The notes below the pieces were generated by a model that was given only the letters and a program-made list of their open reading frames with translations, was not told where the DNA came from and ran no database searches. A program made the translations under genes and the position numbers. From Trichodelitschia bisporula (Eukaryota), in assembly GCA_010356995.1 (NCBI GenBank), contig ML996704.1, forward strand, positions 496,001-560,000: a DNA stretch of 64,000 nt. The letters run 5' to 3'. Shown piece by piece: positions 42,027 to 54,936 of the stretch (positions are counted from its first letter, which is position 1; the number at the start of each line of letters is the position of its first letter).

Positions 42027-43285
42027 TTACGTGTACCCCGGGCCACCAGTTGTGACCGTCGGCCAATCGTCCTCGGTGATGCTTGACCAGAATACCCACA
42101 CCATGACCACAGCCAGCAACGTAAATAGCGTTTCAAACATGCCACCGTTAATCTTGCCATTGGTGCCATCGCAGATGTGGACGCTGATGACATACTGGAA
42201 GATCTGGCCGAGAGCAAAGAGCAACGCGGCAGCGCTAAGGTAAACTTGAAAATGTCAGCTCTGACTGGCTGGGTACGAAAAATGATACATACTCATTGGC
42301 CTCATCTCTCTCAATACCTTGAGTACAAGATACGCTTGAAGGATGAAGTAGACCACCAGGAACACTAATGGCGCAAGCTGATAAAGCGTGTACAGAGGGT
42401 AACTGCGGTTCGGTGCCTCGAGCGCGATGTCGAAGAAATGGGTCCACTGGAAAGTCGTATCGAGAGCGATATAGCCAGTGCCGATGAAGAAACAGGCGGC
42501 AGAGCCTAATATCAGCCCCATGGAGAGCGCTGTCCCGTCCTCGAGGAGTTGGAAGCCGACAAGGCCGTTGAGCATGAGTATCCAGATGGTTGATACTACG
42601 GTCGCGATGTGTACGGCGGAGAACCCCTAAACGTTGGTTAATGCGGTTTATGGAGTGTGCAAAGCGTGAGCTTACTCTTCGAACACGACCGTTGAGAGGG
42701 AAGCCTCCAATGGTAAATATTTCGCAAATCTCAATGATAATGAAGCCAATGAGGAACAGCTGCATCTCTCTGCGATGAGTTAGCTAGCGTCCACCATGAA
42801 GCGTTCCAGGCAATCTGACCTCCGCCCAACAGCAGCTTTCTTCCGGTTTGACCGCCATAGCAGGAATAATGTGACGAGGATAGCGATTGCTGCGAATAAT
42901 ATCGATCCTGATCCCGTTAGAAAGTTTGGCTGAGATTCCAAGCTGCGAACGTACCTAAATTGGCGAGGTGTTTCCCGTTGCTCAGGCTGATGCCTCTCAA
43001 TTCACACCCGCCGAATCCAATCGAGTCGGAACCTCCCTTTGCAGGTGATTCATTGAAAAGCTATCACGGAGAAGAAAGGTTAGCGACCGAGGTAGCAGAG
43101 CCCGTGGGTCTGACGGTTGACGCCGTCGCGGTCGCGGGAAGAGGATTGAACTTACGTTGCACACTACATCACAGCGTTAGCAATTGAGTAAGCCAGCATC
43201 ATACATCTAACATACCTGGGATTGTCGCGTAACGATTGCCGGAGTCCCGACAGAAGTCGTGAAAGTATCCATACTGCGACGGCAT
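42027..43285 (-). CDS. CHS7: Chitin synthase export chaperone CHS7; 7 exons including an 8-nt microexon
   Basis: The spliced product reads MPSQYGYFHDFCRDS...IP|VCN|LF...HLANL|GSI...RKKAAVGR|REMQLF...NGLVGFQLLEDGT...ICDGTNGKING..F...VFWSSITEDDW. Confidence 0.92.
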
Positions 43286-46200
43286 CGTTGCGCGTGGTGC
43301 TGCTGCAGCTTAGCAGCGCCGTGGTGCACCCCTCGCGAGACCCTTCCGTCGCCTGGCTGCGAACGACAACAGTTGAGCTGGAGCTCCAAGTGCTATGTGC
43401 CTTTGTGCGAAAGGTATACCAAACACTGTCGAGTTGGGAGAGTTGACGTCGACGGAATAATTAGACGCTCGTGCGCGCGCCGTGGGTTGATTGCGCCGGT
43501 CGAGTGGAGGATCAGGGGGATGCAGTGGTTGCACAGCGGACCTGGTACGGGGTGGGGGAGCGAGGAGACGGGTTTGAGGGCGCAGCTACGTCGTCGCACC
43601 TCTATAGATAGTGATTATACGATCGTGGAATGGGTTGCGATAGAAGCAAGCTGTGGAGGTTTGAAGGTTTGGAGGTTCGCAAGGCGGGAAGGCAGGAAAA
43701 AAGGGAACTGGCGCTTTCGGGAAAGAAGCACCTTGACGAGGCCGAGAGGAGAGGTTGGCGACGACGACTTGGTTGGCTGATCGGGCAGGAGCCCAGCTTT
43801 TCTCCCTCGCTTCCTCGCAGGACGGCCGTGCACGCCGTGGGCGGTCGACTTTCCCGGGGCAGTGCGTGTAATGTGGCAGTGGTGGCTGGATTTGAAGCTG
43901 GTCGCAACTGGGGATGGGGCTGGGATGAGAAGGCTGGTGATAGGTGAGAGCGAAAGAAGCGGCGCTTTCTGTTACTTGCAATTGGGTGCTCCAGCAACGA
44001 GGGAAAACACGACTTAAGATGATCCCGCAAGCCATGCACCCTAAATCATGATTGAGTAATGTTCCTCGACTTTGACGCCGCTTTTTTAAAGCTTCTGGAA
44101 TCAAACAACAAGCAAGGGCGAGACGATTGACGGTTTGCATTTGCGTTTGCGTTTGCGTTTTGTCTTCTGTTCTTCAGGATAGCTGTTGCTCTGCTATTGT
44201 CCCTTCAGTCCCCGGGGCCGCGAGGTCAACGGCTCCGCACACCAAACTGAACTTCCCGTGTCGCGCGTCGCAATTATGGGTGGGGGCGAGGACTTGCACC
44301 CGTGAAGCTCCCCCCGCCTGTTGTGCTTCGCGAGTTTCCGCGCGGGCCAAGTGCGAAATGAAACGCCAGGAGAGTGTCCAGGGCTGCCTGTTAGAAGTAC
44401 TTCCTACAGTACAGGAGATATGCTTGCTGGTGGGCAATTCTGAGATGACTTCTGTTTTGAAGGCAAGACATTATTTGCGAAAGGACACTCCGCCCATCTA
44501 ACCTTAACCGCTTGTCTGCGCAACGGCTATGGCGCAAGCACGCCAGAGCAAGCTCCCCTCCGTAACGGCGCAGACGTCAAGTCGACGACTTCACCGTTAT
44601 GAAGCATATATCGATCGTAGAATAGCAAGTCCTACCTTCACGTCAGAGCATGCCGCAGTAGCCGGCAAGCTCGAGCGGTTCATCGATCTCTCGCCGTTTC
44701 GAGGGTGTACCCCATCCCCGCGTCGCATCACTACGTGTTGCGCCATAACTTGCCTCCGGATCACGGTTTGGAGAGAGTCGCCAATAATAACCTCGCCACT
44801 GCCTCCTCCATCACAGCTCGGGTTGGACTCCGAGTTTGGATCCTGTTGTAGCGAGCATCATGAGGCAAAAGCTATTGCCAAGTCCAGGAGGACCATTTCG
44901 ACAAATGATAGAAACGGAAGACAAGTGACTGTCAGCCCGCAGACCAGGAACGCGTATTGAACAGCGCATCATGCAGCTGACGAAGAAAAGGAAGCAAAAG
45001 CCTGCTTCTTGTTGGCCGAAATGCTTATCACGACGTCCCTCTCGATGATTTCTCCGACATAGGAACAAGTTCTAGTTGGCCGCCCGCGATGCACTCGCCA
45101 CATCCAAGGCACTCCGCCTCCGGCCCAGACGCAGTACGGCAACCCGAGACAGCGAAAGGCCTCGTTTCACTAGTCTCAAAGTGGAGCTTCGCATCATGCT
45201 AAACACGCTGCGTCTTGTGGAGTCCGGAGCCAGTACATAGTAGTTACAGTACTTCGTAGTACGCTTGTCCGAGGGAATGCCAGTTACAGCGATCATTGCA
45301 CCCGGTAACTGTCGACCCGAAGACAGGCCAGCGCCAAACTCAAGCGCACAAAGGCGAGCTGGAAGTGACGTTGTGAAGGCAACCCATATGACATGAGCAT
45401 CCTTCCGAACCTGTGGATCGGCTTGGCGAGGCTCTACTCTATGGGCTGCTTGGACAACCTGCAGAAGGATGGACCTGAACCAGGAACCCGTAGATTACGA
45501 GTACATCGCTGCAGCAACCTAGCCTTGGGGATCGCTAAGAATAAGCTCTCGCCTCAAGTTCAACCCACAATTGCGGAGGTATACCTACCGCCAAAGGCAT
45601 CATAGCGTCCGACGAACCTTCGTGCGAGCCTTCATCAAACCCCCCCAAACCACCAACCCCACCACCCACACATCGCGACTCGCGCCAAGCCCACCCCGAG
45701 ATGAAGCTAATCTCCCGTCGGCCGGGCGCTACCGACCCGATGCCACCCCACCGGCCCGCTGCCGGATTCCCTATAAGCACGAAGAGGCCCTCCACGAACA
45801 CACGTCAGACGTCGAGGTCTCAACGGTGCTGCCACTGCCGTTCTCGAAGCTCGTGACCGAACCCCCTTGCATACGTAGTAGCTGTCTCGGTGAGCAAGAC
45901 TCTATTGCCAAATAAATCGCCGCTGCCATTGGCGCTTTCTAATGCAAGGTTCCACCGAGAGAATGCGCGTAATGGGCCGGATGTGCAATGGCGTGAGGAT
46001 CATCCCGAAGTTTGACCAATGGTCTATTGTAGTCGAGCTGCTGCATCTAAACCTCAAACACGCGGTATCGGCCCGGCTGGCAAGAACTCACACATTAAGC
46101 ACATTCTCATCGGTGGGGATCCGGCCTTGCTCTACTGGGCGACTGCGGCTGCGGAACACTTAATGTATGCCAACGGAAGGCGTCTAATCACTTGCTGAGC

Positions 46201-49796: not shown

Positions 49797-52127
49797 CTAT
49801 CCCTCATCTTCCTGCTCGACCCGCTTATACTGGCCTCCACCCTGGCTGTTCCCATCACTATCCCTGGTTCGCCGGACCATGCTCGAGATCCAACCCCCAA
49901 AGCCCTCAGCTTGGCTGCCGGCGCGGTCTCTGAGCGAGCCACGGGTGGACGGTGGCCCGTTCTGGTTGACTGGTGGGTTTATGTCAAGACCCGGGATCGC
50001 GTTGTCGGCGCTGATGCCCTGTCTCCGGAGGTCGAGTGACGGCACCGGTGACCTGTGTCCGCTGAACAATGATTCCACTTCGGCGAGAGTTTCGGGGGTC
50101 GGCACGACTGACGTCGCATCGCCGAAGAGTGAGTTCATATCTTCAAGGCGGACATTGGCCGTTTCGGGATAGAGGAACCAGACTGAAGATGGTCAGTTCC
50201 GCTATCAGAAATCATGGAGACCAACTTACCAATTACAAAGCTGAGAGCACAAAAGAAAGCGTGCACTAGGTACAGCCGCCACTGGATCCACTCTTGCAGC
50301 ACTGGAGTCAACTCGCCAACGAGCCAGTTGAAAGCCCAGTTCGTCGCGGTACTCAAACTTGCGCCCTTAGCTCTAATGCTCAAGGGAAGAATCTCAGGCG
50401 GATACAGCCATGGAATAGGACCCCACGAAGCTCCGAATGCCGCGTTGTAGACCATGACAAAGACAACAACGAGCGTAGGTGTGGCGCGAATATCGACGTA
50501 GATGAAGTATGAGATCAAGGATAGGGCTATCATCATGGCCACAGCTCCGGAGAGAAGAATCAATCGTCGTCCCCACAGGTCCACCAAATACCAAGGAGGG
50601 ATGGTGGAGAGGAGGTATGTTATGCCGTTGATACCAGTCATGAGAATCGCGTCCCGGCCGACCCAACCTGCTTGTTCGAAAACGAGGGGTGCATAGTAGG
50701 ATATGACATTGATGCCGTTTAGTTGGGCGAGAGCTTGTGCCGACATAGCGATGAAGACACGCCTTTGGTAACGCTTGAACATGTCCCCGTACGAACGTTC
50801 GCCTTCTTGACGTTGTAGAAGAACGTTCATTTTGATTTCCCTGTACTCTTCCCTGGCTTTGGGATTGTGGATATCTCCCTTGCCGTAAAGATTGGCGATC
50901 ACAACGATACCTTCTTCATCATGATCATTGTCAAGCAGCCACCTAGGATAATTAACGAAACTCGTTGACGGATTTGTGACGCATACCTCGGGGACTCCAA
51001 AATGAGAAAGCTTCCCAGACCCAGGAGAGTACCCATCAGGACCTGCATGAGCAACGGCAGTCTCCACGCCCAGTGACCGTCGATGAGACTGCAGAAATAA
51101 TCCACCCAGACGCTGGCCGCGTAGCCGAAGATATTTCCAGTGAATTCAATGCACGCAAGCTTCCCACGATTATGAGCTGGCGAGATTTCCGATTGGTAGA
51201 CAGGGACAATGGTTGACAGGGCGCCGACGCCCAAACCAGCGGTGATGCGGCCCAGCATCATCATGGGCATGCCGTTGGCGAAACTTTGGAGAGCACCTCC
51301 AATGACAAAGATAACTGATCCGTATAGAATGGTTCGTCGACGTCCGAGGCGGTCGCCTAGTTTTCCGACAAGAAGCGAGGATATGAATGCGCCGACCTCA
51401 AGGATGGCAACCATGGTACCGATTTCTGCTCTCGAAGGCTCATGGAAGTAGTCCTTGAAGTGCGGACCGCTGTTAGCGCTTATTAGCATTCCGTCGCGAA
51501 AGAATCGGGAAGTCCATACGTAATAATGCCGGACATAACACCCTGATCATAGCCAAACAAGAAGACACCAAGAGATACGAATATAGTAGTGAAATATCTG
51601 GACCTTAGTTAGCCATCAGATGTATACCTGCGACAGAGCGCCCACATCAACTTCTTCCCATGAAGCCCGTGGATACGGGACGGTCCATCGTTGGGAGCCA
51701 TTATGGATACAAGTAGCCTTTCGCCGAAGGAGATCTTGCGCGGAGGCGGGTTCGGAATTGGGATGTCCTCTTTCCTCTTAGCGACGCCAGAGCACTTTTC
51801 GGCACGGTCCTCGACGTCGGCGGAGTAGTGCACGCGTTTCGGGCGATGGCTCCGACGATTCCCGTTCCTTGGGAGGCCCTCTTCCAGGGACGCCCTAAGC
51901 CTTATCCGCAAGGGGTCTTCCTCCTCGGCCAGCTGGTCAACGAGGTCACCCGTGTCACTCCACTCTTCTGAAAATTCCTCCGATAATGATGAACGCTGAC
52001 TATCGCGCTTCTCGTCGACTGAACCGATGGGCGACACGGGATCGGTATCGTACACACGTGAGGATGAGGAGAGAGTGTGGAGGGGGATGTTGGCGGGCCT
52101 CCTGGGGTTGCTAGAGAAGGGAGGAAT
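49797..52127 (-). CDS. MFS sugar porter (monosaccharide transporter); first ATG at 51701, proposed extended start ATT at 52127; 4 introns
   Basis: FLFGYDQGVMSG, GDRLGRRR, PVYQSEISP, ESPR, QLNGINVISYY, WGPIPWLYPPEILP and PET motifs. The 5' end is inferred. Confidence 0.9.
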
Positions 52128-53006
52128 CTTGACGATAGCTGGGCTGGGATGGAGCAGCCCGACTCCAAGACAAAGAGAAGGAAAGGGTGGGGAGCGTGTG
52201 CTGCTGTTGAGGAGGTCGGAATGAGATCGACCTGTGACGTGGGTTAGATAAGCAGGTGGATCAGGTTAGAGCTCTGATGTCGTGGCCTGGTCCTGGCTCG
52301 GGGGGAGGTGTGATTGAGGAGTTGGTTGCCTGGTGTTTGCCGGCGCGGCACCGGCGCCTGCAGCAGACGGTGATTTGCGGGGGTTAGGAGGACACACAAC
52401 CACCAGGAAGCCAAACTAAAAAAGTGCGCGGGATCGGTATTGATGACGTCTGGTGAGCAATAATGAAGAAGGATAAAACCGGTAGTTTTTGTTCCACTTT
52501 GGAATTTCACTAAAGGTTATGTACGCAGCTAACACAGCAGGCAAGACTCTCTCGGTACTATTAACGAGCAAAAGCGATCCGTGATCTGAGAAGAAGGCGT
52601 GGCAGACAGAGAGGAGAGAGGCGCTTGGCTCCTATGCATGCGGCTCGCCGCGACAACTCGGAACGAGGCGAAGCCGCGTCAAGCGCTTGGCCGAGGGCAG
52701 AAAGATGCAACTTCCACTGCCCCGTGACTCCCTTTCCATTATTTGCGCTTCCTCTTCCCCTTTCGACTTCGGCTTCAGCCTCTGAAGACTCGCGTCGGAA
52801 GTGTCACTGCCCTGTGGCTGTGCAAATGAAAAGTATGATCGCAGCCTCATCACAGCCTCACGTCCAAGCAGCGTCACCTTCACCAGTCACTGAAAAGGAA
52901 CGACCAGTTTCAAAGCACGAAATCCTTTGCTTTCAAAATCACAAACTAAAGTACACTGCTTCTCCAAACGCCTTAACTCCCTCACCACCCGCTCACTCCT
53001 TGGACC

Positions 53007-54341
53007 TCAAGTTGTCCGAACATAGGTCAGCAAAATCGCAAAGGGTTGGTGCTTTTCCATCCGGAGCACCTTGAATCGCGGATCAACCAGGTCCCTTATC
53101 CTGCCCTTGTGGACTTGATTGTTGTTGATGCCGAAGACGCCACCCGGGCCAGAGTAAACGCCTACATAATGGCCGGCGTTGGTCCGCCTGTCCGCTTTAT
53201 ACCTAACCCCAGGCTCGCTTCGCTTTATCCCCTCCTCAATCTGGGTCTTGAGAGCAAACACATCTTTCTGCAAAATTGTGCCGTTTCCATGGAAGACCAC
53301 TGAAGACAGGCGGTAACGGAGCCGTTGAGAGCGGAATCCCCGTTTCCTGTACTTGGTCAAGTCTAGCCAGAGACTGTACCTAGTATTCGCCCAGTGCGTA
53401 TGCAGCTTCTCGTCCCTGGGATCTAGCTTGATGAAGAGGGCCTCGGGTGCTGCAATGATGCTGGTGATTTCGGGTTTGTATGAACGGACGCCGCAGCCGT
53501 TACAACCGCGTTCGACTTCCGGATAGATACGCAACTTCTTTCGTATGAGGTCCTTCACGTGCTGGCCAAACTCCAGGTAGGTCAGTTCAGTGTGAACCAT
53601 TAGGTTATCCTCTAAAGGTCCTGGATTTCGCGCAGTGCATTCTCCCTGTGTGCAAGGGAATTCCGGTTTCAGGGTAATAGTGAAGATTGCCGCCAGCTCC
53701 TTCCTCTTCTTAATTCTACTCCAGTCAGCAATTGTGCTTAATGCCCCATAGAAGAACGTGCCTTGTCCCCTTGTCGGTGTAGGCCACCCCTATCGATGAC
53801 ACCAACCCCTCAATGATCCAATCTAGGCACTCCCCAGCATCTGCCTGCTGGTGCTCGGCAAACTTTGCTGCCCATGGCGTGGTGACGCAGACTGACCTCA
53901 TACGTTCATGAATTGGAGCAGTCACTTGCTGAGCACTGAGTGGGTCGCTCCAGTAGTCGGTAACGAAGGAGCCCAAGGCGCACGCAAGGCACATTTCCGG
54001 AGTCTGATTTTCGCAGTCTTCGAGATGTAGCTTCAGCCATTCATAGAAGATTGGTACATGTGCCTGTTCCAGAGCGTTAGCGCATCCACCGTGACGGGAG
54101 ACGTAAGTACACACCAGGAGTTGCAGTACTACGCGATTGAAACACTCGTTTCTAGTATTCAACAGCCCTTTGGGACGAGGCGGAGGCTGCCCTTCCTGTA
54201 ACTGTAACTCTGGAGGCCACTCCCTGCTCAGCCCAAGAGCTGTCAACTGGATTAACGTTAGCATCTGACTGAGACTTCATTGAGTCCACTTACCGCAGCC
54301 GACCTGTCATCATGGAGTTGGTCTTCGTGAACGGTAGCCAT
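53007..54341 (-). CDS. Divergent ubiquitin-specific protease (peptidase C19)-like protein; 3 introns, one GC-AG (53761-53716)
   Basis: Cys box GLLNTRNECF, QQADAGE (QDAxE box), zinc-ribbon pairs CTQGEC and CNGC, APEALFIKL, YRLSSVVFH and His box AGHY...GINN. Start MATVHED has context CAAAGATGG. Confidence 0.7.
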
Positions 54342-54936
54342 CTTTGCAAAGCGAATGTTCGTTGACGATTTGAGGGAGAACTCCGGCAGATTCAGCTGCT
54401 GGAGTAAAGTATCCAGTTCGCCATAAAGAAGTGCTTCTGATGTCCGTTTGCGGCAAAATCCAGTTATCGCTGAAGTGTATCATTGAAAGAGGAACAAGGA
54501 GGTCCTCAAGGTCAAAGTGCCGAATGCGGCGCATAGCGCAAATCTTTCATTCGCTCCCAGGGATGACTTTTCAGGCGCATTTTGAAGAAGGATCAGTATA
54601 GGATTGTCGGTAAAGACAAAGGCGGTCGCAAATAGTGGAAGAATTCAAGAGCCTCATCAGGGGACAGTCTGATGGGAGTCTCGAAGGATAGCCAGAAATG
54701 GATGTACGGATGCATCTCAGTGGGAAATATTATCAGCTGCGCTAAATCAAGCTCGTCACGGAATCAAGTACCTAGAACTAGACGCAGTGTCTTCGTTCTG
54801 ATGGCTCCGAGGCGGGAAGCTGTACTTGACGTTGATGTTGACGTTGACGTTTGAAGTTGGGCCAAGTTCCTTTGGCAGACTTCGCAACTTTTCCCGAAAG
54901 ATCAACCATTCGTGGTGACGACATCACATTAATCCA

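Follow-up and report, generated by a model that had tools for sequence, protein, structure and literature searches.

A conserved AUU codon as the putative start of an N-terminally extended sugar transporter in Trichodelitschia bisporula and other filamentous ascomycetes

Several fungal proteins are extended at their N-terminus by initiation at a codon other than AUG, and such an extension is proposed here for a sugar transporter gene on the minus strand of a 64,000-nt stretch of the genome of Trichodelitschia bisporula, a dung saprobe and, according to a taxonomy look-up, a Dothideomycete (contig ML996704.1 of assembly GCA_010356995.1, positions 496,001 to 560,000; this stretch is hereafter the window, and all positions are numbered from its first base). 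Judging from patterns of sequence conservation, translation of this gene probably starts at a conserved AUU, which would add an arm of 142 residues to the transporter, with leaky scanning to the AUG at 51701. The closest described system is cpc-1, which in Pezizomycotina carries a near-cognate-initiated extension with a ratio of nonsynonymous to synonymous substitution rates (dN/dS) of 0.35 and near-optimal initiation contexts; it has several candidate start codons, AUU being kept in 74 of 100 species, and a leader with two AUG upstream open reading frames (uORFs) (Ivanov et al., 2017, PMC5487733). Like cpc-1, the transporter is a filamentous-ascomycete gene with a protein-conserved in-frame extension upstream of the annotated AUG and a conserved near-cognate codon, AUU being among those of cpc-1 (PMC5487733). 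Unlike cpc-1, it has a single putative start codon that is ATT throughout the sequences compared, it lacks AUG in the nearby leader and in the extension, and it encodes a membrane transporter with a conserved hairpin just 5' of the start (PMC5487733). A preliminary description of the window, made from its letters alone, had named cpc-1 as the precedent; this holds for the conserved non-AUG extension, but not for the 'AUG-depleted leader' that was ascribed to it, since the leaders of cpc-1 carry AUG uORFs (PMC5487733).

Further fungal precedents are found among dual-localised enzymes. Peroxisomal 6-phosphogluconate dehydrogenase arises from a non-AUG start (PMC7214817), and the arginyl- and leucyl-tRNA synthetases (ArgRS and LeuRS) of Cryptococcus have AUU- or ACG-started extensions, the ArgRS codon standing in the context cccaccAUU (PMC7049704). 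The likeness would lie in one mRNA with two starts, a weak upstream near-cognate codon adding an N-terminal piece while leaky scanning yields the shorter form; the pieces added to these soluble enzymes are short organelle-targeting signals, however, whereas the arm predicted here has 142 residues and is attached to a polytopic membrane protein (PMC7214817, PMC7049704). A role for local RNA structure beside the start codon in influencing the 40S subunit, as we propose below, has been put forward for START, in which a downstream hairpin assists non-AUG initiation (PMC11165317), and for uORF1 of GCN4, in which structured 5' elements contact eIF3a (PMC3131280). In contrast to START, the hairpin described here lies upstream, with its 3' end at -14, and no conserved structure was found downstream (PMC11165317), while the elements of GCN4 serve the reinitiation that follows a short uORF and not, as would be the case here, in the first recognition of the near-cognate codon of a long ORF (PMC3131280).

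A literature search found no report of a non-AUG start in this transporter family in the library covered, and the AUU-started transporter would be a new and unusually clean example of the known class of near-cognate extensions. A further parallel may exist in mammals, for which Tzani et al. reportedly described, in 2016, AUU- and CUG-initiated proteoforms such as PTEN. PTEN likewise has a conserved near-cognate codon upstream of the annotated AUG that gives a longer proteoform, although in another kingdom and in another class of protein, and we know of no comparable purge of AUG from all frames, nor of an adjacent upstream hairpin, described for it. A natural and deeply conserved single AUU that has no competing AUGs and stands beside a structured element should be well suited to the study of near-cognate start codon choice and its regulation in filamentous fungi.

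Coding conservation of the extension and its putative start

By sequence, the gene (49797-52127 plus leader) encodes a transporter of the major facilitator superfamily (MFS) of the sugar-porter type (PF00083). The orthologous protein P0003 matches PF00083 (Sugar_tr) over profile positions 3-452 of 452 with an expectation value (E) of 1e-106; the same domain is carried by P0001, a Trichodelitschia bisporula model of 991 residues that is the best match of the upstream ORF (99% identity) and whose last 704 residues are identical to the spliced model of the window. Solved relatives of the transporter body are STP10, GlcP, GLUT3 and XylE (E 1e-52 to 1e-36), the match to them beginning about 15-20 residues downstream of AUG 51701. 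Because the body matches solved sugar porters, the 571-residue isoform initiated at this AUG would be a complete transporter. Names in the databases, among them 'high affinity glucose transporter', have been assigned by similarity only.

The transporter frame is open from 52265 to ATG 51701, i.e. over 188 codons (about 190 in the preliminary description), and the absence of ATG from all three minus-strand frames between 51702 and 52636, which had also been claimed, was confirmed. From the A at 51701 up to the A at 52639 this strand has no ATG. No other ATG-free gap in the window, on either strand, is as long as these 938 nt; next come gaps of 750 nt (minus strand) and 471 nt (plus strand). A gap of 938 nt was reached in none of 400 first-order Markov simulations of the window (both strands; median 499, maximum 896). 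Within the 935-nt segment ATG is the sole missing trinucleotide of the 64, about 10.1 copies being expected from base composition.

Conservation indicates that this upstream open frame is real coding sequence. The 212-residue upstream ORF matched 135 database proteins at E<=0.001 with 40-66% identity, a range that refers to Dothideomycetes, and the extension is present in Dothideomycetes, Leotiomycetes, Sordariomycetes, Eurotiomycetes and Lecanoromycetes, with more than 100 orthologues in Pezizomycotina. Eighty related metagenome loci were compared, and 57 distinct extension sequences served for codon analyses. Over 142 columns of these the mean entropy at the three codon positions is 0.84, 0.73 and 1.53, variation being concentrated at third positions, and pairwise dN/dS, which the preliminary description had suggested examining in orthologues, points to coding conservation with a median of 0.18 and a maximum of 0.62 (204 pairs with 0.05<dS<1.5). 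About 140 codons are free of in-frame stops in all 80 loci and in the window, and indels downstream of the ATT at 52127 keep the frame, whereas spacing upstream of it varies between 9 and 17 nt by non-multiples of three. A search of protein representatives with a profile of the extension gave 190 matches, mostly exon-1 fragments, with the same pattern.

Protein-level conservation sets in with Ile-Pro, a pair that precedes the shared R-P-A-N-I-P-L block by a few residues. The Ile codon at this 5' edge, which is ATT 52127 in the window, is ATT in 57 of 57 distinct sequences, while other invariant Ile columns are ATC, ATT or ATA in 47/7/3, 29/18/10 and 16/9/30 of them. Around this codon the A at -3 and the C at +5 are invariant, and conservation of the C at -4 and of the C at +4 is at least 90%. 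The sequence upstream of the ATT does not hold to one frame: a nucleotide block conserved there falls, depending on the lineage, into any of the three, and in-frame stops lie 4-7 codons upstream in loci L006/L008, L022 and L048, those of L006 and L008 being a TAA four codons upstream with no near-cognate codon in between. One annotated protein, P0029, begins with Met exactly at the position of this Ile; in Tothia fuscella, whose annotated protein also starts with Met there, the codon is predicted to be ATG. Nine of 16 more diverged loci have the same ATT site. The preliminary description had offered two near-cognate candidates, ATT 52127 (after GTCAAG) and ATC 52088 (after GCCAAC), and had given their positions, frame and contexts correctly. 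The ATT stands, as the conserved near-cognate codon in a favourable context, conservation of such a codon having been proposed as a check in orthologues; the ATC does not, as it lies inside the conserved block and belongs to the column with 47 ATC, seven ATT and three ATA.

The same comparison shows how thoroughly AUG has been removed. None of 65 anchored sequences has an ATG in frame between the conserved block and the nearest stop upstream of it, and the remaining 16 loci likewise have none upstream of the block (L061 is truncated); in this set of 80 loci and the window, the upstream limit is in some cases the start of the contig rather than an in-frame stop. Only after another 111-154 codons does an in-frame Met appear, the conserved Met of ATG 51701. 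In 93 database orthologues (from 120 listed proteins, 99 had both anchors and six were dropped, the conserved-Met pattern having failed) the 12,625 extension residues include not one Met, against a Met content of 3.6% in the transporter body; of 44 further proteins, 16 could be counted and have no Met in 2,199 extension residues, the other 28 being outside the search patterns. Depletion, another of the checks proposed for orthologues, extends to all frames, with eight ATGs in the 57 extensions vs about 260 expected from composition; a control stretch, the 420 nt that follow the conserved AUG in 49 sequences, has 409 vs 312 expected. The downstream AUG itself has A at -3 throughout the orthologues and mostly G at +4 (C or T in about 11 of 57). 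The loss of ATG from all frames of the extension implies that many scanning complexes cross it, which lends indirect support to the leaky scanning towards AUG 51701 proposed in the preliminary description and suggests that two products are made, of 713 and 571 residues, with expected masses of about 78 and 63 kDa.

Gene annotation has not recorded such a start. Annotated N-termini upstream of the shared block differ between models or are fused to neighbouring genes, and many public models use short invented first exons; among the matches listed, the whole orthologous transporter family would be mis-annotated in public fungal genomes, with N-termini invented, truncated or fused.

RNA-derived contigs bear on the same question. 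They come from two runs on one sample of one study, runs whose label as RNA is a guess, and they were used for what they bridge or skip; they cannot show where transcripts start or end. The contigs skip four introns of the transporter gene and three of the gene upstream of it (GT..AG or GC..AG), and because introns have been removed they derive from spliced RNA. They run unbroken over 51646-53715, through extension, leader and intergenic region and into the 3' part of the upstream gene, which is of the ubiquitin-hydrolase type, and the lack of any joint in this interval means that no far-upstream ATG exon is spliced on, as one might have been at the acceptor near 52232 considered in the preliminary description. 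Transcription from downstream of about 51900, also considered there, would not account for the region upstream of it being present in these contigs, although contigs of this kind do not locate starts. In relatives, seven cDNA-like contigs without introns cross the site collinearly, and each carries one ORF of 695-723 residues counted from the ATT, behind leaders of at least 121-490 nt.

Structure in the leader

A hairpin with a 6-bp stem and an 8-nt loop ends 13 nt before the AUU in the window (Table 1), and single-sequence folds predict it both there and for the majority of relatives. Its pairs form in 89% of the cells of a 46-sequence MAFFT alignment, which was not fitted to structure, vs 28-53% when the partner is slid; five of the six pairs change on both sides (compensatory changes in 11 cells), and each of these observed measures was reached by at most two of 500 shuffles. 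A similar hairpin, ending 8-18 nt from the AUU, is present in 38 distinct sequences. An Rfam scan of 51500-53100 at E<=1 gave no match. Structures that assist initiation from the downstream side begin roughly 14-20 nt 3' of the start codon; no conserved structure downstream of the AUU was found by RNAalifold in the -80..+60 alignment, and the minimum-energy fold of the window has a weak 5-bp downstream helix.

A UGGAG block just 5' of the hairpin is complementary to CUCCA in its loop. In 41 of 47 sequences at least 4 bp can form between the 12-nt flank and the loop, compared with 20.6 on average and 31 at most for shuffled flanks; on the MAFFT alignment the GGAG:CUCC helix forms in only 60% of cells. 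This pairing is more stable than that of shuffled flanks (0 of 300), but not than that of flanks and loops combined across sequences (156 of 300); because pairing across sequences is equally good, the complementarity rests on two conserved motifs and not on covariation. The UGGAG block and the loop may form a pseudoknot or an alternative pairing.

Other readings of the leader were tried and set aside. An outer helix between the flanks of the hairpin is no better than one between shuffled flanks, of which 84 of 300 equalled or exceeded it in stability. As a start codon, the CTG conserved in the hairpin is a poor candidate: it occurs in all three frames relative to the ATT (19, 11 and 9 sequences), GCTGCT is absent from 18 of 57 sequences, and a stop follows after two codons in L048, L050 and L072. 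The conserved CAGCC makes a poor 3' splice site, since its spacing to the ATT varies by non-multiples of three, it is followed by an in-frame stop in L006 and L008, and it is retained in the cDNA-like contigs. Three cDNA-like contigs of relatives (L022:50-55, L030:71-76 and L048:33-38) share a feature that has no counterpart in the window: 157-163 nt before the AUU, in conserved surroundings, stands a minimal AUG-UGA 'start-stop' uORF.

Proposed mechanism and rival explanations

In the scheme that we favour, scanning 43S complexes would travel along a leader without AUG for at least 512 nt and would first meet the AUU, the context of which (C at -4, A at -3) is a good one for fungi. Some of them would initiate there with initiator methionyl-tRNA, giving a 713-residue protein whose first 142 residues are the arm, while those passing the AUU would find no AUG in any frame over the next 426 nt until the strong-context AUG 51701, where initiation would give the 571-residue transporter with the short N-terminus usual for the family. 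Two isoforms differing by a 142-residue arm, as predicted, would offer a route to isoform-specific control of nutrient uptake or sensing. The hairpin 13 nt 5' of the AUU may tune the use of this codon, and its position would place such an effect at the exit side of the 40S subunit. It has also been considered, as a tentative and rather unlikely extension of the scheme, that the AUU and the upstream hairpin or pseudoknot form one regulatory module that sets the ratio of long to short transporter, possibly in response to nutrients or stress, the structure re-forming or contacting the exit side of 40S/eIF3 as the AUU enters the P site. If such a module existed, how strictly start codons are chosen would govern a sugar transporter or sensor in most filamentous ascomycetes by way of an upstream and not a downstream RNA structure, and the arm, with its RVxF-like motif, could be regulated in trafficking or signalling.

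A number of points weigh against initiation at the AUU, or against parts of the scheme built on it. AUU is among the weaker near-cognate codons, and the base at +4 is C instead of the preferred G. Of the diverged loci, three that are closely related have ATA at the site and others are unclear there or truncated. Support for translation from the AUU is evolutionary inference throughout, and a separate downstream promoter for the short form is compatible with the data. The RNA evidence comes from the one sample, and a contig spans both the transporter and the upstream gene; it may reflect merged overlapping transcripts or read-through and is no proof of a single transcript. As for the hairpin, RNAalifold found no consensus structure in the wider -80..+60 alignment, and the window sequence, folded by itself, does not stand out (z = -1.25).

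Initiation at the AUU with leaky scanning past it nevertheless fares better than the explanations that compete with it. The extension is conserved as well as many domains are, and the conserved AUU context together with the hairpin could make initiation efficient, as would be expected if the long protein were the only one made in meaningful amounts, with Met 51701 an internal residue and no functional short isoform. This is improbable, in view of the usual leakiness of near-cognate codons, of an all-frame loss of ATG that is hard to explain unless many scanning complexes traverse the extension, of a downstream AUG that keeps A at -3 and mostly G at +4, and of an AUG-initiated product that would be a complete sugar porter. 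Both isoforms could instead exist with the short one arising mainly from a second transcription start, inside the extension or just upstream of it; alternative transcription starts are common in fungi and the contigs cannot show transcript ends, but an internal promoter would not require that ATG be purged from all frames of the extension, and each of the seven cDNA-like contigs contains the AUU preceded by 121 nt of leader or more, which makes this account quite improbable.

The remaining explanations dispense with the AUU altogether. Long AUG-free leaders exist, and the part of this leader that holds the hairpin is conserved as RNA, so that the whole upstream ORF might be thought an untranslated leader conserved at the RNA level, with AUG 51701 as the only start; this is very improbable given the third-position variation and the low dN/dS, about 140 codons open in every locus, and indels that keep the frame downstream of the ATT vs the irregular spacing upstream of it. 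An upstream ATG exon spliced onto the extension has public annotation on its side: P0001, P0002 and P0006 are built in this way, in the manner of a fused hydrolase-transporter, and many other models have short invented first exons. Such an exon is hardly credible, as the contigs have no joint in 51646-53715 though seven other introns have been removed from them, the cDNA-like contigs without introns cross the site collinearly, several relatives have stops in frame 4-7 codons before the ATT, and the annotated N-termini disagree with one another.

Gene structure, neighbouring genes and the arm

The features of the locus are collected in Table 1. Joints in the contigs place the end of exon 1 at 51646 and its donor, GTGGGC, at 51645, which rules out a donor at a GTATAC further on, and the spliced frame from ATT 52127 has 713 codons.

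Table 1. Position of the transporter gene parts, start codons and leader elements in the window.
Feature	Position	Strand	Basis
Putative initiation context CAAG-AUU-CC; AUU at 52127-52125	52123..52131	-	Codon and context conservation
First AUG, context AUAAUGG, conserved; proposed start of 571-residue short isoform	51699..51701	-	Met conserved, A at -3
N-terminal extension, 142 codons, rich in Ser/Arg/Pro/Glu, no Met	51702..52127	-	Gene model, entropy, dN/dS
ATG-free interval (part of 5' leader and N-terminal extension)	51702..52636	-	No ATG in any minus-strand frame; simulations
Leader hairpin: stem GGGCUG 52160-52155, loop CUCCAUCC 52154-52147, stem CAGCCC 52146-52141	52141..52160	-	Folds and alignment
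UGGAG block just 5' of hairpin, complementary to loop CUCCA	52163..52167	-	Flank-loop pairing
Coding part of exon 1 (exon continues upstream)	51646..52127	-	RNA-derived contigs
Intron 1, GT..AG, 48 nt	51598..51645	-	Joint 51597/51646 in both runs
Exon 2	51520..51597	-	Contigs and gene model
Intron 2, 50 nt	51470..51519	-	Contigs
Exon 3	50987..51469	-	Contigs and gene model
Intron 3, 44 nt, GTATGC..TAG ('cut +2' reading of joint)	50943..50986	-	Contigs
Exon 4	50230..50942	-	Contigs and gene model
Intron 4, 47 nt	50183..50229	-	Contigs
Coding part of exon 5, stop TAG 49799-49797; 3' untranslated region reaches at least 49557	49797..50182	-	Contigs and gene model

At intron 4 (window 50182-50231), a minor contig of the X1 run (depth 25.5 vs 1768 for the main form) has the joint shifted by one base, with one extra letter, which could be an alternative acceptor or an assembly error.

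In the public P0001 model, the ubiquitin-hydrolase-type gene upstream (PF00443; window 53007-54400, minus strand) is fused to the transporter. The intron of about 1.1 kb that this fusion needs (from about 53205 to about 52103) was not seen in the RNA-derived contigs, and the hydrolase frame runs on to a stop at 53007. An intron of the upstream gene, at 53716-53761 on the minus strand, has GC..AG ends and not GT..AG (the joint reads CT..GC on the plus strand). The same PF00443 fusion occurs in models of two Venturia species, and because these carry it the transporter and the hydrolase are probably neighbours in Venturia too. In Hortaea werneckii (P0092-P0102 and others) transporter models of about 985 residues are fused to an upstream PF03641 (lysine-decarboxylase-like) gene, which is probably another annotation artefact of the missing AUG.

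The arm has three conserved blocks: an N-terminal R-P-A-N-I-P-L-H-T-L-S-S-S, an acidic W-S-D-T-G-D-L-V-D-Q-L-A ... E-D-P-L, and E-D-I-x-I-P. A basic motif, [KR]-x-[VA]-x-[YF], is found in 56 of 57 sequences as K-R-V-R-Y or K-R-A-R-F, V going with Y and A with F, and its copy in the window is K-R-V-H-Y (51834-51848); we take it to resemble the PP1-docking RVxF motif. A Pfam search with 160 residues of the extension found no family, and no targeting signal was recognisable in it. The best ESM Atlas score for the 142-residue extension, 0.76 for a 'GLC7-interacting protein 1', is below the level at which it has meaning and serves as a lead only. The arm is probably cytosolic and largely disordered, and one might guess that it regulates trafficking, turnover or signalling.

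Elsewhere in the window, the second-longest ATG-free gap (43285-44035, minus strand), of a length that was reached in four of the 400 simulations, has at its end an ATG whose frame begins with M-M-L-A-Y-S, membrane-like ORFs coming after it, and may be another long AUG-free leader.

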